A DNA stretch of 64,000 nucleotides from Escherichia coli (lineage in GTDB: Bacteria; Pseudomonadota; Gammaproteobacteria; Enterobacterales; Enterobacteriaceae). The position numbers and the translations under genes are program-made. A model generated the notes under the pieces. That model was not told the DNA's origin. It was given only the letters and a program-made list of their open reading frames with translations, and made no database searches. The DNA lies in NCBI RefSeq assembly GCF_003790525.1, contig NZ_CP033633.1. One strand, 5' to 3'. Below, one piece after another: positions 1 to 61,366 of this stretch (the stretch's first letter is position 1; each line of letters starts with the position of its first letter).

Positions 1-10
1 ATTTAACAGT

Positions 11-708
11 AATTACCAGTGTTATGGCTATCGTCGCCTGCATGCGATGCTCAGGCATGAGGGGGGGGGCGGCTATCAGAAAAGGTTGTACGCAGACTTA
101 TGGTGGAAGAACAGCTTGTCGTCAGCCGTAACCGTCGTCGCCGCTACAGCTCATATTGCGGAGAAATCGGACCGGCTCCGGATAACCTTATCGCCAGAGA
201 TTTTAAGGCGGAGCAACCTAATCAGAAATGGCTGACAGATATCACGGAGTTCCACCTCCCTGCAGGTAAAGTCTGGCTATCATCGGTGGTGGACTGCTTC
301 GATGGAAAAGTTGTGAGCTGGTCTCTCAGTACACGCCCCGATGCTGAACTGGTCAACACTATGCTGGATAGCGCTGTCGAAACGTTAAATGCTGGCGAAC
401 GACCGGTGATACACAGTGACAGAGGTGGGCATTATCGCTGGTCAGGCTGGCTGGAAAGAGTGAATGCAGAAGGTCTTATTCGCTCAATGTCCCGCAAAGG
501 ATGTTCACCTGATAATGCGGCATGCGAAGGCTTTTTCGGCAGACTGAAAACGGAAATGTATCATGGGCGTAAATGGTCGGGCATCACGCCAGAAAAGTTC
601 ATGCAGCAAGTGGATACTTACATCAGATGGTATAACGAGCGGCGTATAAAATTATCGCCGGGTGCAGTCAGCCCCAAAATGTACCGCCAACAATGCGGGC
701 TGGAATGA
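11..708 (+). pseudogene. IS3-family transposase OrfB (DDE integrase core); 5' end outside window; frame switches at a G9 homopolymer (61-69)
   Basis: Frame 2 (11-69: YQCYGYRRLHAMLRHEG) and frame 1 (100-708: RRRRYSSY...QKWLTDITEF...HSDRGGHY...SPDNAACEGFF) are consecutive IS3 OrfB segments joined at the poly-G run. Confidence 0.6.
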
Positions 709-1600
709 TAAAGCAGTCCAGGAAATCGTCCGCATCCCCAGAACGGTCAAACATCGTGGCGTTGACAACGGGTTCCTGAGTCCGGTGAAGCGCCGGTTAC
801 TGGAAAATGTTGTGTACGTCATAACAGAAACGGAGAGAAAAACGGCGATGCAAATCAGGCGGAGAAGGGTGTATCAGCGGTTACTGAAGGTTGACCCGCT
901 GAAGTGCATCCTGTGCGGAGGTCAGATGCGGTTTACGGGGCTGAAGCGGGGCTACCGTCTGGCAGAGCTGGTCATGATGCATGAGCCACTGGCACGACAG
1001 CGGGTATACAGCTGAGAGCCGCAGAGGGGAAGTTGCGTCCATTTTTTGAGGAATGGAGCAAAAAATCATCACAGATATAAAAAATCAATCAATGAAAGCC
1101 ATTTAATTGCCGGTGCATTGTGGATGCAGTCCTCATGGTACGTAACCAGAGTTGAATAAACATCCATTTTTTTGTGTTTTTTTAACCTCCCCGGGTTTTT
1201 AATTCCTGTCGATTAAAAGTGTTAGATTATTTGGTTAAGAGTTCTCTCGTCCTATTTATTCAGGCGTTATCACGGATATGCAGATCGCTAAGTCAGTTGT
1301 AAGAAAACCAGACAGTGCACATCATTATACCTAGGTCTTCTCTGGAAAAATACTTAGGAATAATTTATGTAAAACAGGTTGTCGTCTTCATGATTTAAAC
1401 GCAGTACATATATATACTCTATAATAAATACAGGGAGTATCACGAGACGTCTGGATAAGAGGAATAACCAGAATAAATTGGTAAGGAATAAAGACACTTA
1501 TTTCTATTGAGAAAAAACATTCATCCTGATGTGATTAGTATCAATGAAATAATGTACTTGTATGGTTGATAAAAAAATGCATCACTAAAGAAAAAACAGT

Positions 1601-4600
1601 ATGAATAAGAATATACGAATTTTACAATTTCTGGTCAGTATACTTTATTCTGTGCAGTCTCATTTTTCTAGTGCGCAAACAATACAACTGAATGGTAATG
1701 GTATACCTGAAAGTATAACCAGGAGTATTACAGGTGTTGATGGAAACGCGGCGCTTAATATCAGCGTGCCGTATAAAACAAGTTATACTCAAAATATACT
1801 ATCTGTTGAAAGCAGTATTAACATCAAAGGAGGAACAAGCAATACATCAATCGGTGGTGCAGGTGTCTACGGTGAAAACTTTACGCTAAATAATAATGGT
1901 AGTGTTTGGGGAGGAGATGGATATAATGGTGGAATTGCTGTTAGTGGCAACAAAATATCTATAAACAATTACAGAAATGTATATGGGGGTAATGGTCTTG
2001 GTGGCTCAGGAAGTAGCGGAGGTGCAGGGTTAAGCGGGGATGATATTATAGTTGATAATTACAGAAGTATATACGGAGGTGATGATGTAGGTGGGACAGG
2101 TGGTTCCGGTGTAACCGGTAGCAATATTACAGTGCATAATTCCGGAGGAATATTGGGCGGTAATGGCGTAAACGGTGGTGATGGTATTAATGGTAGTAAT
2201 CTTTTCATTACTAACGACAACATGATATCTGGAGGATATGGAATAAAACAAGGGGGAGATGCTATTTCTGGAAATCAAATCACTTTGAATAATAACGGTA
2301 TTGTTCAGGGGGGATATGGCCCCGACGGTGGTTGCTCTGTTTATGGAGAAGATATCCATATTAATAATCATGGTAATCTTTCAGGATTATATAATAGCCA
2401 AAAAGATGCTTATAATACATCAATAATTTTTTCTGGCGGGTATAATTCATTAGATATTTATTCAGATTCTGTGATTAATGGTGATATTAAACTAGCTAGT
2501 ATACCTGTTAATGGTACAAATGAATTAATTATTAAGAACATCAATAACGCAACAGCAATTAATGGTGGGCTAATGATTGGGAATGGCTCATCTGTTTATC
2601 TGTCAGGCAAGAACTCCATTTTTAACGGAAATATAAGTATTGATGAAGACGCATCTATGAACCTGTCTGTAGGAAATGCTAATGTTCACGCAAATACTAT
2701 TACATTAAAAAGTGATTCATGGCTTAATATAGACACATCAATTAAGAACTGGACTCAGGACTATTACACATTATTGTCGTCAGACACAGGTATCTCGATC
2801 GCTGATAATAGTCACATTGTACAATACAATGTATTACTGACAGAAGGTGCTGAAAGTTATGTTTATACGTCTTTAAATGACGACGATAACAAACTGATAT
2901 CCATGCTGAGATGGAATAATACAAAAGGGATGGGATATGGAACCTTTAATATAGAAAAAGATGCCACTCTGAACATAGGCGTTTCTCTTTCCGATAATCT
3001 TTCACCTTTATTATATGATGGCTGGGACGGCAAAAGTCTGACAAAATCAGGTAATGGTACTCTTATACTTTCTGCAACAAACAATTATACAGGAAATACA
3101 GAGGTTAAATCTGGCGTATTAATTCTTGCTGCACCTGATGCTCTTGGTCGGACTGAGTATTTATATTTATCCCGTGGCGCAGAACTGGATATGAATGGGT
3201 ATCCTCAGACAATAAGCAAACTACTGACGGCTGCAGGCTCTGTGCTGAACATTCATGGCGGAAGTCTGATACTGAATAATGGAGGAGAATCTGCAGGTAC
3301 TATTGCAGGGGATGGTTCTCTGAACATAAATGGGGGAATGCTTGATATAACGGGTAATAATCGTAATTTTTCCGGTGTTTTTACCGTGAATAAGGGGGCT
3401 CATTTGGCTGTATCCACGGCTGATAATCTGGGGACAGCCTTTGTTGATAACTATGGCACATTAACTCTGAACAGTACATCAGCATGGCAGCTTACCAACA
3501 ATATCAGTGGTTATGGTAATGTTCGCAAGACGGGAGCAGGTGCACTGAACATTAGCGATAACGCAAAATGGAGCGGGATGACAGATATTATTCAGGGGAC
3601 AGTGATACTGGGGAACGCAGATTCACCGGTGATGCTCGGCAGTAACCAGGTCATTGTTGAAGAGCAGGGCAAACTCTCCGGGTTTGGGGGCGTTGCAGGA
3701 AATCTGAGCAATAGTGGTATAGTCGATCTCACTACATATATGCCGGGTAATATACTGACTGTCGGAGGGAATTACACTGGCAGAAATGGACTTATTCTCC
3801 TCCAGACAGAAACAGGTGGTGACAATTCGAAAACAGATCGTCTGGTGATTAAAGGTAATGCCAGTGGCCGTACCCGTGTCGCTGTTACTCAGGCCGGTGG
3901 TTCTGGTGCAGAGACACTTAATGGGATTGAAGTGATTCACGTCAGTGGCAATGCTGATAATGCTGAATTCATTCAGACGGAACGTATTACAGCCGGAGCT
4001 TATGATTACATACTGAAACGTGGTCAGGGGATTAACAGCACTAACTGGTATCTGATTAGCAGAAAAGACATTCCTGTACCACAACCTGAAGCTGTACCGG
4101 AAAACCATGATAATAATTTGCGTCCTGAGGCAGGTAGCTATGTTGCCAGTATTGCTGCTGCAAATAATCTGTTTGTAACGAATCTGTATGAACGACAGGG
4201 ACAGGAGTTGTATATCAGCCACATGACAGGAGAAGAAAATGAAGCAGGTATCTGGATGTATAATAAAGGAAAACATAATCGCTGGCGTGACAACAGTAGT
4301 CAGCTGAGAACCCGGGGGAATAGCTACGTTGTGTTAATAGGGGGAGATATAGCTCAGTGGAGCCTGAATGGTACCGATCGCTGGCATACAGGTATGATGG
4401 CTGGCTATGGTCATAATAATAACAGTACGAATGCCCTGAGCACCGGATACCATTCGGAAGGAAGAATGAATGGATACACAGCGGGTCTTTATGCAACATG
4501 GTATGCCAATGATGAAACACACAATGGTTCTTATCTTGATAGCTGGCTGCAATACAGCTGGTTTGATAATCATATAAATGGAGAACGGCTGCCTGCTGAG

Positions 4601-5098
4601 TCATGGAAGTCAAAAGGGTTTACGGTATCTCTGGAAGCAGGATATTCATGGAAGGCTGGAGAGTTTACCGACAATTACAAGGGAAGTCATGAATGGTATG
4701 TTCAGCCGCAGCTTCAGGTTGTCCGGATGAATGTAAAATCAGACAAATATCATGAAAGTAACGGAACCAGTATTGAAAATACCGGTAACGGAAATATTCT
4801 CACCCGCCTGGGAGCAAGAACATGGCTTACCAGCAAAAACGGTAAAAATACGCGGTATGCGGTTCCGTTCAGACCATTTGTGGAGGCACACTGGTTGCAC
4901 AATAGTCGTGTTTTCGGCACCAGTATGAATGGTGTAAGTATATACCAGGATGGTGCGCGTGATATCGGAGAAATAAATGGTGGTGTTGTGGGAATGATAA
5001 CACCAGAAGTAGCATTCCGGGCTGATGCAGGCATTCAACTTGGAGAACATGGATACCATAATACATCTGCCATGTTGAGTGTGGAATATCGTTTCTGA
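1601..5098 (+). CDS. type Va autotransporter (adhesin-like): signal peptide, Gly-rich beta-helix passenger, C-terminal beta-barrel
   Basis: 1165-aa ORF; hydrophobic N-terminal leader; repeated GGNG/GGDG motifs; C-terminal ~280 aa with alternating aromatic pattern ending VEYRF; AT-rich relative to neighbours. Confidence 0.8.
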   Translation: MNKNIRILQFLVSILYSVQSHFSSAQTIQLNGNGIPESITRSITGVDGNAALNISVPYKTSYTQNILSVESSINIKGGTSNTSIGGAGVYGENFTLNNNGSVWGGDGYNGGIAVSGNKISINNYRNVYGGNGLGGSGSSGGAGLSGDDIIVDNYRSIYGGDDVGGTGGSGVTGSNITVHNSGGILGGNGVNGGDGINGSNLFITNDNMISGGYGIKQGGDAISGNQITLNNNGIVQGGYGPDGGCSVYGEDIHINNHGNLSGLYNSQKDAYNTSIIFSGGYNSLDIYSDSVINGDIKLASIPVNGTNELIIKNINNATAINGGLMIGNGSSVYLSGKNSIFNGNISIDEDASMNLSVGNANVHANTITLKSDSWLNIDTSIKNWTQDYYTLLSSDTGISIADNSHIVQYNVLLTEGAESYVYTSLNDDDNKLISMLRWNNTKGMGYGTFNIEKDATLNIGVSLSDNLSPLLYDGWDGKSLTKSGNGTLILSATNNYTGNTEVKSGVLILAAPDALGRTEYLYLSRGAELDMNGYPQTISKLLTAAGSVLNIHGGSLILNNGGESAGTIAGDGSLNINGGMLDITGNNRNFSGVFTVNKGAHLAVSTADNLGTAFVDNYGTLTLNSTSAWQLTNNISGYGNVRKTGAGALNISDNAKWSGMTDIIQGTVILGNADSPVMLGSNQVIVEEQGKLSGFGGVAGNLSNSGIVDLTTYMPGNILTVGGNYTGRNGLILLQTETGGDNSKTDRLVIKGNASGRTRVAVTQAGGSGAETLNGIEVIHVSGNADNAEFIQTERITAGAYDYILKRGQGINSTNWYLISRKDIPVPQPEAVPENHDNNLRPEAGSYVASIAAANNLFVTNLYERQGQELYISHMTGEENEAGIWMYNKGKHNRWRDNSSQLRTRGNSYVVLIGGDIAQWSLNGTDRWHTGMMAGYGHNNNSTNALSTGYHSEGRMNGYTAGLYATWYANDETHNGSYLDSWLQYSWFDNHINGERLPAESWKSKGFTVSLEAGYSWKAGEFTDNYKGSHEWYVQPQLQVVRMNVKSDKYHESNGTSIENTGNGNILTRLGARTWLTSKNGKNTRYAVPFRPFVEAHWLHNSRVFGTSMNGVSIYQDGARDIGEINGGVVGMITPEVAFRADAGIQLGEHGYHNTSAMLSVEYRF

Positions 5099-5244
5099 TG
5101 TGTCTTTACATTATAAATATCCTTCACAAAATATTGTTGATAAGACATGGTTAGGTGGTGAGCTGCCTCGGAAAATATGACGACAGTAATGATTTCTAAG
5201 AGATTTGAAATGCGTTGATAACAAAATCTGAAATATAGGAGTCT

Positions 5245-6030
5245 GTTTAGGAGAGCCTGTTTAGGATTCTGTGTAAATGCCTTTTCTCAGAAGTGACCGT
5301 CCAGGCGGTCACCGAACTCGATAATAAAGCGGCTCATTGCCATTCGCCAGTCCTTCAACGGCATCGTCCATTTCTGGGACGCAGACTGGATTGCCAGCCA
5401 CACCACTTTTTTCACCGAGTCGTCTGTCGGGAACACTTTACGCTTTTTGATCGCATGGCGGATCACGCTGTTTAGCGACTCGATGGCATTCGTCGTATAG
5501 ATCACTTTGCGGATGTCCGTTGGATAAGCGAAGAACGTGGCAAGATTCGGCCAGTTAGCCTGCCAGCTTCGGCTTATCTGAGGATAGCGACTGTCCCAGG
5601 CCGCAGCGAACGCTTCCAGTGCCTGCTGACCTGCCTCTTCCGTGGGAGCCTGATAAATCGCTTTCAGGTCGCGAGTGACGGCTTTGTAGTCCTTCCATGA
5701 CACGAAGCGCAGGCTGTTGCGCACCATATGCACGATGCATAACTGGATGCGGGCCTTCGGATATACTGTGTTGATGGCATCCGGGAAGCCTTTCAGGCCA
5801 TCCACACAGGCGATGAGGATATCGTTCAGACCGCGGTTTTTCAGTTCAGTCAGCACATTGAGCCAGAACTTCGCCCCTTCATTTTCGGCCAGCCACATAC
5901 CCAGCAGTTCTTTCTGACCTTCGATATTGATGCCCAGTGCCAGGAACACCGATTTGTTGATGACGCGACTGTCCTGCCGAACTTTCAGGACGATACAGTC
6001 AAGATAAACAATTGATAAACAGCATCCAGT
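5245..6030 (-). mobile_element. IS256-family element fragment, copy 1 (transposase 3' two-thirds, 5287-~6000; N-terminal part replaced)
   Basis: ORF 5287-6114 encodes ...ALGINIEGQKELLGMW...LIACVDGLKGFPDAI...CIVHMVRNSLRFVSWKDYKAV... typical of IS256/mutator transposases; same sequence recurs at 10491 and 57069. Confidence 0.7.
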
Positions 6031-6112
6031 GTAAGCGTACAGCCTGAACCGTCTGGTCAGAATCTGACGAATTAGACAAAGTGATGTCCACCAAATAAGT
6101 GAAGTGCGCCCC
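6031..6112 (+). mobile_element. IS66-family left terminal fragment (same as left end of complete copy at 11269)
   Basis: gtaagcgtacagcctgaaccgtctggtcagaatctgacgaattagacaaagtg... shared with 11269-11337, then diverges. Confidence 0.5.
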
Positions 6113-6147
6113 AATAGTTAGACACCAGATCTGTAACTGAGGAGCGT

Positions 6148-6456
6148 ATGAGCAAATTTTCATTAGAATTCAAAAGGGAAGTATCAGAAAAATACCTGGA
6201 AGGTGAGCTGAGTTTGAAGTCTGTTGGAAAAATGTACAATATTGACCCCAGCACGGTAAGGAAATGGGCTTATGTTTACCGTAAGCACGGATTAAAAACA
6301 CTGACTGGGCAAAAAAGACGTTATGACGATAACTTCAGATTGAATGTGGTCAGAGATGTTATTGATAATTCTCTTTCTATAAGGGAAGCTGCAGTGAAGT
6401 ATGGGATCCCTGCTTTTAACACCATATCCAAATGGATTAAAAAATACAGTGAGTGA
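6148..6456 (+). CDS. HTH-domain transposase OrfA-like protein of a truncated IS (element cut by IS629)
   Basis: 102-aa ORF with helix-turn-helix-like segments; ends 3 bp from IS629 terminus; assignment by general resemblance only. Confidence 0.35.
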   Translation: MSKFSLEFKREVSEKYLEGELSLKSVGKMYNIDPSTVRKWAYVYRKHGLKTLTGQKRRYDDNFRLNVVRDVIDNSLSIREAAVKYGIPAFNTISKWIKKYSE

Positions 6457-6495
6457 ACCGCCCCGGGTTTCCTGGAGAGTGTTTTATCTGTGAAC

Positions 6496-7386
6496 TCAGG
6501 CTGCCAGATCATCGTTTCCGATGGAAGCATAATAAGCTTTTTCTGCTTCTGCCGGTGGGATATGGCCCAGCCTTTCCAGCAATCGTCGATTGTTATACCA
6601 GTCCACCCACGTGAGTGTGGCCAGCTCCACTTCTGTCCGGTTTTTCCAGCTCTTACGGTGTATTACCTCCGCTTTGTAAAGGCCATTGATGCTCTCCGCC
6701 ATCGCGTTGTCATACGAGTCACCAGTACTTCCTGTTGATGCCAGTAATCCGGCTTCCTTAAGCCGCTGTGTGTAGGCCAGCGATACATACTGAGAACCTT
6801 TATCACTGTGATGGACTGTGCCGGACGGTCGACGGGCCCATAACGCCTGCTCCAGAGCATCCAGCACGAATGTCGTTTCCATAGACGATGAGACCCGCCA
6901 CCCCACGATGTATCCGGCAAACACATCAATGATGAACGCCACATAGACGACCCCCTGCCATGTGCTGACGTAAGTAAAATCAGCCACCCACAACTGGTCA
7001 GGACGTTCTGCCACAAACTGACGGTTTACGCGGTCGCCTGCGGCAACGGCTTTCCGGCTGACGGTAGTGCGGACCTTTTTACCCCGGAGAACACCGGCAA
7101 GTCCCATAACCGCCATGAGGCGCGCCACTGTACATCTGGCTACCCTGATTCCTTCCCGTAACAACTGACGCCAGACTTTACGCACACCATATACCTGATG
7201 ATTCCCATCGTATACGCGCAGTATCTCTTTCTTCAGCCAGTCATCGCGCTGCGCACGGGCACTGCGTTTATAAGGATGATGTCGCTGTTGCTGACAGTGG
7301 TAATACGTTGACGGGGCAATATGTAGTTCACTGCATACCGGTCCGACCCCGTACAGCTTACGCAGCTTATCCAGCAGTGGCATCAC
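6496..7386 (-). CDS. IS629 transposase OrfB
   Basis: 296-aa ORF; DDE integrase core (HSDKGSQY...[15 protein letters not shown]); overlaps orfA as in IS3 family. Confidence 0.85.
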
Positions 7387-7709
7387 TTTTTCCAGAGGCG
7401 GTCGAACTCCGCCTTCGCAAAATAAGCGGAAGCCTGGCGAAGGATATCGTTACTGCGGCGCAGTTCACGATTTTCACGTTCCAGCTCTTTCAGACGCTGA
7501 CGTTCAGCGGTGGTGAGCCCGCCATCACCGCCTCCGGTATCCCGCTCATGCTGGCGTACCCAGACACGCAGAGTCTCCGGTGTACAGCCAATCTTTGGGG
7601 CAATGGAACAAATTGCCGCCCACTGTGAGTCATATTCGCCCTGACTTTCCAGAACCATACGAATCGCCCTCTGACGGACTTCGGGGGAAAAACGAGTATT
7701 TTTAGTCAT
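7383..7709 (-). CDS. IS629 transposase OrfA
   Basis: 108-aa [33 protein letters not shown]... with leucine-zipper tail. Confidence 0.85.
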
Positions 7710-8003
7710 TCTGTTTACCTCTTTATCAGGGAGTTTAGTCTCCAGGATTCCCGGGGCGGTTCAGTTTTCACTCAGCTATGAACAACTGACCCGGTTTGCG
7801 GAACGACGCATCCGGGAATGCAATCTGGACAGCCAGGGCGCGATTTATCTCTGCGAGTCAGCCAAAGCCGGAGCCGTGCTGATCTTCTGGCATGAACTGG
7901 CCATAAATGGCTATACCTCAATGAATGCCATAAAAAGACAGGAGATCATTGACGCCGACCATCAGCGCCTCAGAAAGCTTATCTGGCCGGAGGATGACTG
8001 GAA

Positions 8004-8594
8004 ATGACCCAGAGCCGCCGACCGTCGCCACTGCAACGGAGAGTGCTGATTGTGCTGGCTGCCCTTGATGAAAAACGGCCAGGCCCCGTGCTGACGCGGG
8101 ACATAGAACGGGTGCTGGAGCGAAGCGGGGAAGCCCCGGTCTACGGGCCAAACCTGCGCGCCTCCTGCCGTCGTCTGGAGGATGCCGGATGGCTGCGTAC
8201 CCTGCGCGCTCCGAACCTGCAGCTGGCAGTGGAACTGACGGACGCCGGCCGGGCCGTGGCACAGCCTCTGCTGCTGGCAGAACAGGACCGCCTCCGGGCA
8301 GAACAGCGTGCGGCAGAAGTCGTCGTACTGCCGCTGGTCCCGGCAGCAGGTCTGCCCGCAGACGGCACTTCTGCCACTGATCTGGCGGTGGAGCTGAACG
8401 GCATGACGTATCAGGCCTGCCGCGAGGATTTTGTGGTACGTCTCGACGGCAGCACCTGTCTGCAGTTATGGAATAAAGAAGGCAGGGTGGTACGGCGGGA
8501 GGGCGATCCGCTGGAAGTGGCGCAGTGGCTGCAGGCCTGTCACGATGCCGGAATGGAGGTTCGTGTACAGGTTAATGAAAGCGTCACCCCGTAA
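8004..8594 (+). CDS. hypothetical high-GC protein, possible winged-helix DNA-binding N-terminus
   Basis: 196-aa ORF; start overlaps stop (ATGA) of an upstream gene remnant at 7767-8006 that is cut by IS629. Confidence 0.45.
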   Translation: MTQSRRPSPLQRRVLIVLAALDEKRPGPVLTRDIERVLERSGEAPVYGPNLRASCRRLEDAGWLRTLRAPNLQLAVELTDAGRAVAQPLLLAEQDRLRAEQRAAEVVVLPLVPAAGLPADGTSATDLAVELNGMTYQACREDFVVRLDGSTCLQLWNKEGRVVRREGDPLEVAQWLQACHDAGMEVRVQVNESVTP

Positions 8595-9114
8595 CAGTAT
8601 TTCCCGCTCCGTGAAATTGAAACTTTGCAATTAATTCTTTGAGCGTCTTAGCTTTACAAGTAGTGATATGTCGCTTCCGTCAGGAATTTCGAGTTTTCTT
8701 ATCCGGTGATGTAGCCCGACATCAGTTTTATATCCAAGCAGTCTGGTGGCCTGGCTTATTGTTACTTGTATAACGACCTTTGTTCAGTTCAGTACATTCC
8801 GTCCCAGTTCGGACGGTTGTTTTTTTATGATGAAATGCTGTAGGAATATACTGACACGTGCATTACCCCTACCGCGATAATGCAACCGTACAATATAGGG
8901 CGTTTCCTAAACGCAGCCCTCATCACTCCAATCCAACAAGACACAGCATTTTTGATCACGAAGAAAGACAAATATATTTCCGTTGTTACAAATAACAACA
9001 GTGTTTTATATTTCTTTGACCTCAGGCCCGCGCATGTTGCCATTCGATGTCATTTTCCTGACTCGTTTCTTCTTTATGGTGTAGTGTGATCTTCACTTTA
9101 TGGATGCTAACAAT

Positions 9115-10490: not shown

Positions 10491-11268
10491 AGGAGCCTGT
10501 TTAGGATTCTGTGTAAATGCCTTTTCTCAGAAGTGACCGTCCAGGCGGTCACCGAACTCGATAATAAAGCGGCTCATTGCCATTCGCCAGTCCTTCAACG
10601 GCATCGTCCATTTCTGGGACGCAGACTGGATTGCCAGCCACACCACTTTTTTCACCGAGTCGTCTGTCGGGAACACTTTACGCTTTTTGATCGCATGGCG
10701 GATCACGCTGTTTAGCGACTCGATGGCATTCGTCGTATAGATCACTTTGCGGATGTCCGTTGGATAAGCGAAGAACGTGGCAAGATTCGGCCAGTTCCTG
10801 CCAGCTTCGGCTTATCTGAGGATAGCGACTGTCCCAGGCCGCAGCGAACACTTCCAGTGCCTGCTGACCTGCCTCTTCCGTGGGAGCCTGATAAATCGCT
10901 TTCAGGTCGAGAGTGACGGCCTTGTAGTCCTTCCATGACACGAAGCGCAGGCTGTTGCGCACCATATGCACGATGCATAACTGGATGCGGGCCTTCGGAT
11001 ATACTGTGTTGATGGCATCCGGGAAGCCTTTCAGGCCATCCACACAGGCGATGAGGATATCGTTCAGACCGCGGTTTTTCAGTTCAGTCAGCACATTGAG
11101 CCAGAACTTCGCCCCTTCATTTTCGGCCAGCCACATACCCAGCAGTTCCTTCTGACCTTCGATATTGATGCCCAGTGCCAGGAACACCGATTTGTTGATG
11201 ACGCGACTGTCCTGCCGAACTTTCAGGACGATACAGTCAAGATAAACAATGGGTAAACAGCATCCAGT
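10491..11268 (-). mobile_element. IS256-family element fragment, copy 2 (transposase frameshifted: ORFs 10527-10745 and 10678-11187)
   Basis: Near-identical to 5245-6030 but with a 2-bp deletion near 10797 splitting the ORF. Confidence 0.7.
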
Positions 11269-57321: not shown

Positions 57322-57375
57322 TGAACCGCCCCGGAAATCCTGGAGACTAAACTTCCTGAGAAAGATGTAAACAGG

Positions 57376-57702
57376 ATGACTAAAAATACTCGTTTTTCCC
57401 CCGAAGTCCGTCAACGGGCAGTTCGTATGGTTCTGGAAAGCCAGGGCGAATATGACTCACAATGGGCGGCAATTTGTTCCATTGCTCCAAAGATTGGCTG
57501 TACGCCAGAGACCCTGCGTGTCTGGGTTCGCCAGCATGAGCGGGATACCGGGGGCGGTGATGGTGGGCTCACCACCGCTGAACGTCAGCGTCTGAAAGAG
57601 CTGGAACGCGAAAATCGTGAACTGCGCCGCAGTAACGATATCCTTCGCCAGGCTTCCGCTTATTTTGCGAAGGCGGAGTTCGACCGCCTCTGGAAAAAAT
57701 AA
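57376..57702 (+). CDS. IS629 transposase OrfA (variant)
   Basis: 108 aa, one substitution relative to copies 1 and 2. Confidence 0.8.
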
Positions 57703-58095
57703 TGCCACTGCTGGATAAGCTGCGTGAGCTGCAGTGAGCTGCATATTGCCCCGTCAACGTATTACCACTGTCAGCAACAGCAGCATCATCCTGATAAACG
57801 CAGCGCCCGTGCGCAGCGTGATGACTGGCTGAAGAAAGAGATACAGCGCGTATACGATGAAAATCACCAGGTGTACGGTGTGCGTAAAGTCTGGCGTCAG
57901 TTGTTACGGGAAGGTATCAGAGTGGCCAGATGCACTGTGACACGTCTTATGGCGGTTATGGGTTTTGCCGATGTTCTCCGGGGTAAAAGGTCCGCATTAC
58001 CGTCAGCCGGAAAGCCGTTGCCGCAGGCGACCGCGTAAACCGTCATTTCGTGGCAGAACGTCCTGACCAGCTGTGGGTGGCTGATTTTACTTACG

Positions 58096-60835
<2,740 letters not shown>

Positions 60836-61366
60836 TGAGTTAACAGACAAAACATTCTCCAGGAAACCCGGGGCGGTTCATATCGCCAGAAAAGCTTTCA
60901 CAACGCCTGTGAGCATATCCAGAACAAAAACGAAAAAATCCTTGTTCGTTCTTAAAAATCGCGTTAGAACTCCTTTGAGCGTGTTCTGCGACTGTGTCTT
61001 GTGTTGGCATGCGTAAACGGGAGCCGCAGTTCGCGCTCACCCTCCCATCTGTATTTCACCTGACGACACGGTTCTTCGTTACGTTCCTTCGGTGAGTGAG
61101 TGCCTGTGCGTCAGGGTAACGCAAAGTGTTCAGGTTTTGCGGGGTGTCAAGTCGGTTAGACTAACCGACCGCAGAATTAACTATACCTCTGAAGGTCTCC
61201 CCCGATATATCTGCCTGTCAGATATGTCGCCGATTCGGCATATCACTACATTAAACTCCTTAAAAAACAATGATGCTATGTTGACTGACGGTTTTTCGGA
61301 AGTCTGACCGGAGAGACGTCAGTACGAAACAGAATGAAGTTGAAAAAACGATCACGTCAGGTCACT

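Follow-up and report, generated by a model that had tools for sequence, protein, structure and literature searches.

Assignment of a large glycine-rich autotransporter gene on an Escherichia coli virulence plasmid to aatA

In a stretch of 64,000 nucleotides of Escherichia coli DNA (NCBI RefSeq assembly GCF_003790525.1, contig NZ_CP033633.1; hereafter the window), a gene for a large autotransporter with a Gly-rich passenger lies in an AT-rich segment flanked by insertion sequence (IS) remnants, and the question that this locus raises is which autotransporter it encodes. An initial annotation had described an AT-rich island with a large Gly-rich autotransporter that could not be assigned to a named one. 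Base composition, Pfam matches, a structural model and Foldseek all agree with the structural kind that was proposed, but the gene can be named: its product is 97.2% identical to the protein of avian pathogenic E. coli (APEC) O1 and 99.6% identical to that of BL21, and the FNR box in front of it is conserved. We are close to certain that window positions 1601-5098 are aatA, which encodes the monomeric type Va autotransporter AatA (APEC autotransporter adhesin A) and is carried here on a conjugative virulence plasmid. Because aatA was already named and functionally characterised in 2010, the locus is biologically nothing new. Its value is one of annotation, in that a generically labelled protein is a published virulence-associated adhesin present in ~13% of complete E. 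coli genomes.

The aatA coding sequence (1601..5098, + strand) is a single intact open reading frame (ORF) of 3,498 bp that encodes 1,165 amino acids (~124 kDa), as the 3.5-kb gene of the initial annotation had implied. There is no ORF of comparable size on the opposite strand, and the neighbours of the gene are IS fragments, with no co-oriented gene adjacent to it. The length equals exactly that published by Dai et al. 2010 (PMC2944236) for aatA of strain IMT5155, where a single-gene locus of 3,498 bp specifies an autotransporter adhesin of 124 kDa. We fetched the pAPEC-O1-ColBM locus (NC_009837.1 81930-85427, APECO1_O1CoBM96) and one BL21 locus as references and compared the ORFs directly. 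Over the full length and without gaps, the window ORF was 97.17% identical at the amino acid level and 98.06% at the DNA level to APECO1_O1CoBM96, which is well above the ~90% set as the limit for the assignment, and 99.57% and 99.74% identical, respectively, to the BL21 copy, to which Dai et al. likewise give the name AatA. These values resemble those given by Dai et al. (PMC2944236) for IMT5155 aatA, which is 98% identical to the pAPEC-O1-ColBM copy and 99% identical to the copies of BL21(DE3) and REL606. The same paper credits Li et al. 2010 with giving the name aatA to the pAPEC-O1-ColBM copy. The signal peptide, autotransporter (AT) repeat, passenger and translocator of the published AatA architecture were all found in the window protein, in the published order.

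The differences between the alleles are not evenly distributed. We counted 33 amino acid differences from the APEC O1 allele, 19 of which lie in the translocator domain or barrel. Because 19 is also the number of translocator differences that Dai et al. (PMC2944236) report between APEC_O1 and IMT5155/BL21, the coding sequence of the window allele is of the IMT5155/BL21 type. At the nucleotide level, 38 of the 68 differences from APEC O1 cluster at window positions 4746-5080 (aatA nucleotides 3146-3480), so that divergence amounts to ~11% in the last ~350 nucleotides and ~1% elsewhere in aatA. This clustering suggests that the barrel-coding 3′ end may be recombinant in one of the lineages.

The identity of the gene is hidden in the databases by its NCBI product name, 'autotransporter outer membrane beta-barrel domain-containing protein'. 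Identical proteins are present in NCBI (e.g., AYW28269.1), and the corresponding 90% cluster comprises 6,327 sequences that all carry generic labels; some records annotate aatA as 'AidA-I adhesin-like protein'. The name itself is a further source of confusion, as aatA of enteroaggregative E. coli is an unrelated gene whose product serves the Aat dispersin transporter as its outer-membrane protein. Text searches of the literature for AatA appeared to mix in this gene and, once, a misspelt ataA of Acinetobacter.

The sequence in front of aatA was compared for its composition and regulatory sites. The initial annotation had noted ~580 bp of very AT-rich sequence, and indeed the GC content of 1020-1600 (581 bp) is 34.3% compared to 51.5% for the 64-kb window; an AT content this high or higher is found in only 1.7% of 581-bp windows. 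The low-GC tract is unbroken from ~1000 to ~2600 and runs into the 5′ part of aatA, with 28% GC at 1351-1650, 36.7% in the first 1.1 kb of the ORF and 41.3% in the ORF as a whole. About the first third of the leader is the tail of an IS91 remnant and is not specific to aatA. The aatA-proximal upstream region with the native promoter (1346..1600, + strand) is conserved in all three genomic contexts that we compared, namely the window, APEC O1 and BL21. Small ORFs within 1020-1600 were rejected as genes, as all are shorter than 50 amino acids and have no support. A search of 1-9000 against Rfam (E <= 0.1) returned no match in the AT-rich leader; the sole match was an ALIL pseudoknot in an IS3 element.

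Because the 200 bp upstream of the ATG match APEC O1 at 196 of 200 positions and BL21 at 164 of 200, the promoter of the window copy is of the APEC type and not of the BL21 type. According to Dai et al. (PMC2944236), a functional promoter lies within 100 bp of the aatA ATG; the promoters of IMT5155 and APEC_O1 are near-identical, and that of BL21 is ~70% identical and poorly active. The region contains an FNR box, ATGTTTTTTCTCAA (1508..1521, − strand), as an exact 14-mer that ends 79 nucleotides before the ATG. Barbieri et al. 2017 (PMC5481319) list in their Table 1 an FNR site of aatA (APECO1_O1CoBM96) at a distance of -79 from the ATG, and the window site is the same both in sequence and in distance. 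In that study, FNR shifted an aatA promoter fragment in an electrophoretic mobility shift assay, and deletion of fnr lowered the expression of an aatA-lacZ fusion.

The adhesion assays that the initial annotation proposed had already been published for aatA, on other alleles. The published functional results concern alleles that are 97-99.6% identical to the window copy. In IMT5155 and APEC O1, Dai et al. (PMC2944236) detected both the transcript of aatA and its protein. When aatA was introduced with 100 bp of native upstream sequence into a fim-negative K-12 strain, adherence to DF-1 chicken fibroblasts increased 1.9-fold (PMC2944236). The fragment AatAF (amino acids 459-865) was used to raise an antibody, and pre-incubation of the cells with AatAF lowered the adherence of IMT5155 to DF-1; anti-AatA serum also reduced IMT5155 adherence, although this inhibition was only 'slight' (PMC2944236). 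The segment equivalent to AatAF lies at window positions 2975..4196 (+ strand; ORF nucleotides 1375-2596) according to the coordinates of Dai et al. (PMC2944236). PMC5481319 and a 2022 review credit Li et al. 2010 with the result that aatA contributes to virulence in vivo. According to Dai et al. (PMC2944236), aatA is present in a third of APEC isolates and in 56% of avian commensals.

Several points weigh against reading the window gene as an expressed adhesin gene of this kind. The evidence for adhesion and expression comes from alleles other than the window plasmid copy, to which it would extend by analogy, and the published effects are modest (the 1.9-fold gain and the 'slight' inhibition by antibody; PMC2944236). 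Wild-type AatA reportedly escaped detection in vitro in the work of Li et al., and transcription of the BL21 copy is poor, at 0.16x the IMT5155 level, with no protein detectable (PMC2944236); the presence of the gene is thus no guarantee of its expression. On the side of the sequence, the call of a signal peptide is based on sequence features, and when 900-5400 was scanned with a simple sigma-70 model, no promoter reached the threshold on the plus strand of 1400-1600. Over 900-5400 as a whole, sigma-70 and terminator sites were no more numerous than in shuffled controls, and no terminator was found after the aatA stop codon. The position of the promoter therefore rests on the cloning result of Dai et al.

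Taken further, some of these points would make the intact gene an effectively silent one: an AT-rich acquired gene that is repressed most of the time (e.g., by H-NS) and travels as cargo of an IS-rich module with little phenotype. In addition to the lack of detectable protein from BL21 and, reportedly, in the hands of Li et al., the very AT-rich promoter and 5′ coding region (28-37% GC against 51.5% for the window), the frequency of aatA in avian commensals and the interruption of the gene by IS2 or IS3 in some genomes (H1, H27, H73) agree with such a role. We nevertheless consider it plausible in part but unlikely overall, as the window copy has the APEC-type promoter and not the BL21 type, and this promoter gives transcript and protein in IMT5155 and APEC O1 and adhesion in K-12 (PMC2944236). 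Moreover, the ORF is intact and near-invariant over hundreds of genomes, with 575 of 713 records being at least 99% identical.

Returning to AatA as a surface adhesin, we characterized the domains of the protein. The N-terminus (MNKNIR, the hydrophobic core ILQFLVSILYSV and QSHFSSA|QT) is predicted to be a Sec signal peptide of amino acids 1-25 (1601..1675, + strand), with cleavage at SSA|QT (SSA|Q at residues 23-26). The prediction draws on recognizable n, h and c regions and on hydropathy: the n-region is positively charged, the core comprises 12 residues with an 11-residue Kyte-Doolittle peak of 2.1, and small residues occupy positions -3 and -1. The signal peptide proposed by the initial annotation is thus supported as a sequence feature. 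For AatA, Dai et al. (PMC2944236) likewise predicted a signal peptide with SignalP 3.0. Further downstream, the passenger contains a VirG/IcsA insertion domain (VID) at amino acids 377-434 (2729..2902, + strand; Pfam PF22364, E 1.6e-7) and, within the segment equivalent to AatAF, a PATR repeat at amino acids 480-508 (3038-3124, + strand; Pfam PF12951, E 3.1e-9; TIGR02601). The passenger is capped by an autochaperone, a pertactin-like C-terminal domain at amino acids 717-818 (3749..4054, + strand), to which Pfam AC_1 (amino acids 717-805, E 3.5e-24) and Pertactin (E 1.4e-7) match.

The C-terminal barrel noted earlier was borne out by profile searches, so that the absence of a C-terminal autotransporter beta-domain, which would have spoken against the whole observation, does not apply. 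The outer-membrane beta-barrel translocator spans amino acids 884-1165 (4250..5095, + strand) and ends with the aromatic residues YRF; it matches Pfam Autotransporter PF03797 (amino acids 884-1143, E 9.6e-35) and NCBIfam TIGR01414 (E 2.7e-96). The closest solved transport unit is that of AIDA-I (PDB 4MEE, E 1e-73 over AatA amino acids 711-1165), on which Foldseek superimposed the modelled barrel and linker with a target-normalised TM score of 0.96 and a root-mean-square deviation of 1.6 A. An AlphaFold2 model was calculated from 26 homologues and reached a mean pLDDT (predicted local distance difference test) of 83.1. In this model, the passenger is unbroken and all-beta from ~26 to ~820 with a pLDDT of mostly 80-97, the barrel comprises residues 883-1164, and residues 1-23, i.e., the signal peptide, are disordered with a pLDDT <50. 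The sole long helix is an alpha-helical linker at amino acids 843-856 (4127..4168, + strand), predicted to lie in the barrel pore; the region is included in the alignment to 4MEE. The features of a type Va autotransporter, i.e., a putative Sec signal peptide, a beta-helical passenger with an autochaperone, and a helical linker with a barrel, are therefore all present.

From these domains and the established pathway of the family, the following route to the surface can be proposed. The 25-residue signal peptide would direct Sec export of the 124-kDa precursor, after which the beta-barrel assembly machinery (BAM) would insert the C-terminal domain of ~280 residues as a beta-barrel, with the linker helix at amino acids 843-856 occupying the pore. 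The passenger would be extruded with its C-terminus first (C-to-N), and the autochaperone at amino acids 717-818 would be the first part to fold, templating or nucleating the stacking of a long right-handed beta-helix. The passenger probably remains attached to the cell surface, as suggested by the band of the expected AatA size in total cell extracts (PMC2944236) and by the 2022 review, which places AatA with IcsA, ShdA and MisL in Group 8 and regards the members of this group as anchored in the outer membrane, with a predicted beta-helical fold.

The passenger had been called GG[ND]G-rich. It is Gly-rich, with glycine accounting for 24.8% of AatA residues 27-260, but the motif was overstated: strict GG[ND]G occurs only 4 times (amino acids 104, 129, 186 and 192), compared to 12 occurrences of GGxG, 11 of them inside amino acids 85-240, so 'Gly-rich repeats' is the accurate term. 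Seven tandem Gly-rich units of 25-30 amino acids, each of which opens with GG, extend over amino acids 77-261 (1829..2383, + strand) and follow roughly the pattern GGxGxxGGxxxxGxx-I-x-I-x-N-x-G-x-I-x. The autocorrelation of glycine has peaks at lags of 25 and 30, and two of the units have left a trace at the DNA level in the form of a 53-nucleotide repeat that is 74% identical with 90-nucleotide spacing. In the AlphaFold2 model, the segment has a pLDDT of 90-97, and the same arrangement of strands returns at intervals of 25-27 residues, with starts at 94, 119, 144, 171, 196, 222 and 247. Because of this recurrence, each Gly-rich unit is predicted to form one beta-helix rung.

The Gly-rich module falls outside amino acids 459-865, the only AatA fragment tested for adhesion. 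The module shares homology with the Gly-rich repeats of IcsA. It could hold a second binding activity, directed at a host protein or at self-association, that would be distinct from the known adhesion to DF-1; we put this forward as a speculation with a rather small chance of being right. If true, AatA would be an adhesin with two binding sites, and the AatA/IcsA-like proteins of E. coli would offer a workable system for studying the role of Gly-rich repeats outside Shigella.

As judged by sequence similarity, IcsA (VirG) of Shigella flexneri is the closest characterised relative of the AatA passenger. In BLASTP, AatA 45-550, which contains the Gly-rich repeats, aligned to IcsA 84-597 with 35% identity (E 2e-52), and AatA 592-1165 aligned to IcsA 494-1102 with 34% identity (E 8e-99). 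The two proteins are colinear in their Gly-rich repeats, VID, PATR segment, autochaperone and barrel, which represents homology but not orthology. Searches against the PDB agreed, with matches to an IcsA passenger fragment (5KE1, E 1.2e-56 over AatA amino acids 376-549) and to the IcsA autochaperone (3ML3, E 1.6e-24; Foldseek TM 0.75). The kinship is also in line with the 2022 phylogeny, in which both proteins belong to Group 8. Compared to IcsA, AatA has an additional PATR-containing segment of ~100 amino acids. Because AatA 447-489 (window ~2939-3067) and 592-651 (~3374-3553) both align to IcsA 494-537, the PATR region, the alignment suggests that AatA, relative to IcsA, may contain an internal duplication. 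Colinearity with IcsA over the full length, together with the confident one-unit-per-rung model of the Gly-rich repeats, is a modest point of this analysis that may be useful.

In IcsA, the Gly-rich region is the region that binds N-WASP. This raises the question of whether AatA might be a functional analogue whose Gly-rich repeats recruit this host actin regulator for intracellular actin-based motility. The full-length homology at 34-35% identity, with Gly-rich repeats and VID included, would be compatible with such a function. However, the identity is just ~35%, and the linker insert of IcsA with the SSRRASS motif, which we take to be the IcsP/SopA cleavage and phosphorylation site, has no counterpart in the AatA alignment. 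N-WASP is stated as the target of IcsA in the 2022 review. Moreover, aatA occurs in BL21/REL606 and in many commensals, bacteria without a cytosolic lifestyle, and the published phenotype of AatA is extracellular adhesion (PMC2944236), in contrast to the intracellular actin nucleation by IcsA. We regard an IcsA-like function of AatA as very improbable.

A different question is whether AatA is mainly a self-associating autotransporter (SAAT) of the AIDA-I/TibA/Ag43 kind, i.e., acts in aggregation and biofilm formation instead of binding to host cells. SAATs have imperfect passenger repeats of ~19 amino acids and a dedicated heptosyltransferase gene (aah/tibC) alongside. In AatA, the barrel and autochaperone are indeed nearest to AIDA-I (4MEE, see above), but the repeats are Gly-rich units of 25-30 amino acids, and no gene of the aah/tibC type or other glycosyltransferase gene is adjacent, the neighbours being IS elements only. 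The AIDA-I model NF033176 scored 275.5 bits compared to a cut-off of 1,200 and covered only amino acids 650-1165, leaving the N-terminal 650 residues unmatched; on these three grounds we rejected an assignment to AIDA-I. The literature is divided as well. The tree of Dai et al. (PMC2944236) clusters AatA with AIDA-I, TibA and Ag43, the title of a 2011 paper names 'cell aggregation' as a role of AatA, and the 2022 review ties most Group 8 members to aggregation or biofilm. However, the 2022 phylogeny places AatA in Group 8 and not in the SAAT Group 4, and Li et al. reportedly found no role in autoaggregation or biofilm formation, so that the reports conflict. Overall, self-association as the main function of AatA appears distinctly doubtful, and adhesion to host cells remains the preferred reading.

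More distant relatives were found in Salmonella enterica and in E. coli itself. The C-terminal halves of ShdA and MisL are homologous to that of AatA (NCBIfam MisL E 1.5e-106, ShdA E 3.9e-51), but the scores are far under the equivalog cut-offs, and identity is 27% over ~74% of the AatA query. Both belong to the same phylogenetic group as AatA (2022 review). Unlike AatA, for which no extracellular matrix ligand is known, the much longer ShdA binds fibronectin (2022 review). In E. coli, paralogues of 1,204-1,318 amino acids (e.g., WP_338386040.1 on an IncF plasmid) are 49-50% identical to AatA from amino acid 221 to the C-terminus. They share the Gly-rich N-terminal repeats, VID, autochaperone and barrel with AatA but differ in having a longer Gly-rich region, in lacking ~47 amino acids (AatA 619-665) and in a LuxR-type regulator gene directly 3′. 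The paralogue at this IncF plasmid locus (NZ_AP027900.1 1750-6092) has 1,311 amino acids, is 49% identical from amino acid 221 and is followed by a small LuxR-type gene. The paralogue family has members in many E. coli, and no function has been reported for it.

How did the gene come to this plasmid? The IS-remnant flanks of the initial annotation were found on both sides, with IS3 and IS91 upstream and IS1414 and IS3 downstream. The upstream IS3-family element (1..767, + strand) is cut by the window start and contains an integrase-core ORF at 100-708 (Pfam rve, E 8.8e-19, and rve_2); matches to IS3-family copies end at ~767, and a complete 'IS3 family transposase' coding sequence is annotated at the matching place in the sister plasmid pPK8275-145kb. 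It is followed by an IS91-family remnant (765..1216, + strand) that consists of the C-terminal frame of the transposase (to 1015) and the 3′ non-coding end and is ~85% identical at the DNA level to many loci annotated as 'IS91 family transposase'. The ORF at 662-1015 had no match in Pfam and was assigned to the IS91 remnant from DNA similarity only. The combination of the IS3 end and IS91 remnant (700-1353) was found at >=80% coverage in 330 genomes, in chromosomes as well as plasmids. Dai et al. (PMC2944236) describe IS2 and IS91 sequences 5′ of aatA and other IS elements 3′, and the upstream flank of the window has the arrangement that they give for IMT5155.

Downstream of aatA lies a truncated IS1414 of the IS256 family (~5253..6100, − strand) that is without the N-terminal ~40% of its transposase (Pfam Transposase_mut, profile positions 160-377 of 379, E 6.1e-73) and matches other IS1414 copies at 99%. 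This remnant contains an intact ORF of astA (EAST1; 5667..5780, − strand), with the 38-residue translation MPSTQYIRRPASSYASCIWCATACASCHGRTTKPSLAT*, which is annotated at 100% identity in plasmid pE32-3. It is followed by an IS3-family orfA fragment (6148..6456, + strand), with Pfam HTH_Tnp_1, HTH_21 and rve matching over the debris at 6148-7767, and by an IS3 element (6454..7767, − strand) with orfA at 7383-7709 and orfB at 6496-7386, repeated copies of which occur elsewhere. The ALIL pseudoknot (RF01497; 7312-7428, − strand, 116 bits) lies at the overlap of orfA and orfB in this element and is the expected programmed-frameshift signal. A second astA ORF for the EAST1 heat-stable enterotoxin is located at 10902-11018 (− strand) and is a variant ending in ...TTRPSLST; both astA ORFs lie within an IS1414 copy or remnant.

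We used the ends of homology among the window, APEC O1 and BL21 to set the limits of the mobile segment. Homology with the APEC O1 locus spans 1346-5195 and that with the BL21 locus 1354-5494, so that the portable core consists of a ~250 bp promoter region, the aatA ORF and a ~100 bp trailer (~1346-5195). A repeat search of 600-5400 yielded no flanking direct or inverted repeats that delimit a discrete transposon around aatA. The IS flanks are shared with the loci of pAPEC-O1-ColBM, IMT5155 and BL21/REL606, which carry the same gene, but they differ between genomic contexts. Taken together, aatA is a horizontally acquired gene of low GC content between IS flanks, its product is a large autotransporter of the classical (type Va) kind whose passenger is Gly-rich, and the low-GC cassette has been moved by IS elements between chromosomes and plasmids.

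This distribution is reflected in complete genomes. The aatA ORF was present in 687 of 5,426 complete E. coli genomes (~13%), at 486 chromosomal and 248 plasmid places and mostly with at least 99% identity. It was also present in 233 plasmids of PLSDB, including many of chicken origin. The window itself is ~99.9% colinear with pE32-3 (NZ_CP119733.1), a conjugative IncK2/Z, MPF_I plasmid from chicken, and the colinearity covers leading-region genes (ssb, psiB, ardA, umuDC) and the relaxase. At 13706-19907, the window contains a 6.2-kb segment that is inverted and 99.7% identical to pAPEC-O1-ColBM 86,809-93,009, which adjoins aatA in that plasmid. The segment encodes a major facilitator superfamily (MFS) transporter, three ABC-transporter genes (the eit operon, eitABCD-type iron uptake), a recombinase and a RelE/RHH toxin-antitoxin pair; eitD is the flank marker of the APEC_O1 variant according to Dai et al. 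(PMC2944236). Because of this identity, the window represents a ColBM-type virulence module with aatA on a different plasmid backbone: it has the promoter with the FNR box and the linkage to eitABCD in common with APEC O1 but an IncK2/Z-like backbone with MPF_I conjugation instead of the ColBM plasmid. The correct gene name thus flags the plasmid as one that carries an APEC virulence module (aatA, eitABCD, astA) on a conjugative IncK2/Z-type backbone.

In three genomes, the aatA region is split in two by an annotated IS2 or IS3-family transposase (H1, NZ_CP135672.1; H27, NZ_CM142796.1; H73, NZ_CP019256.1), so natural insertional knock-outs of the adhesin probably exist. Finally, pE32-3 contains a 2.26-kb insertion with ltrA, encoding a group II intron reverse transcriptase, in the IS3 copy at window position ~6977, which is absent from the window. 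The window has an intron-containing stretch at 57322-60880 that is 97% similar to this insertion, which suggests that the intron may have moved recently between the sister plasmids.

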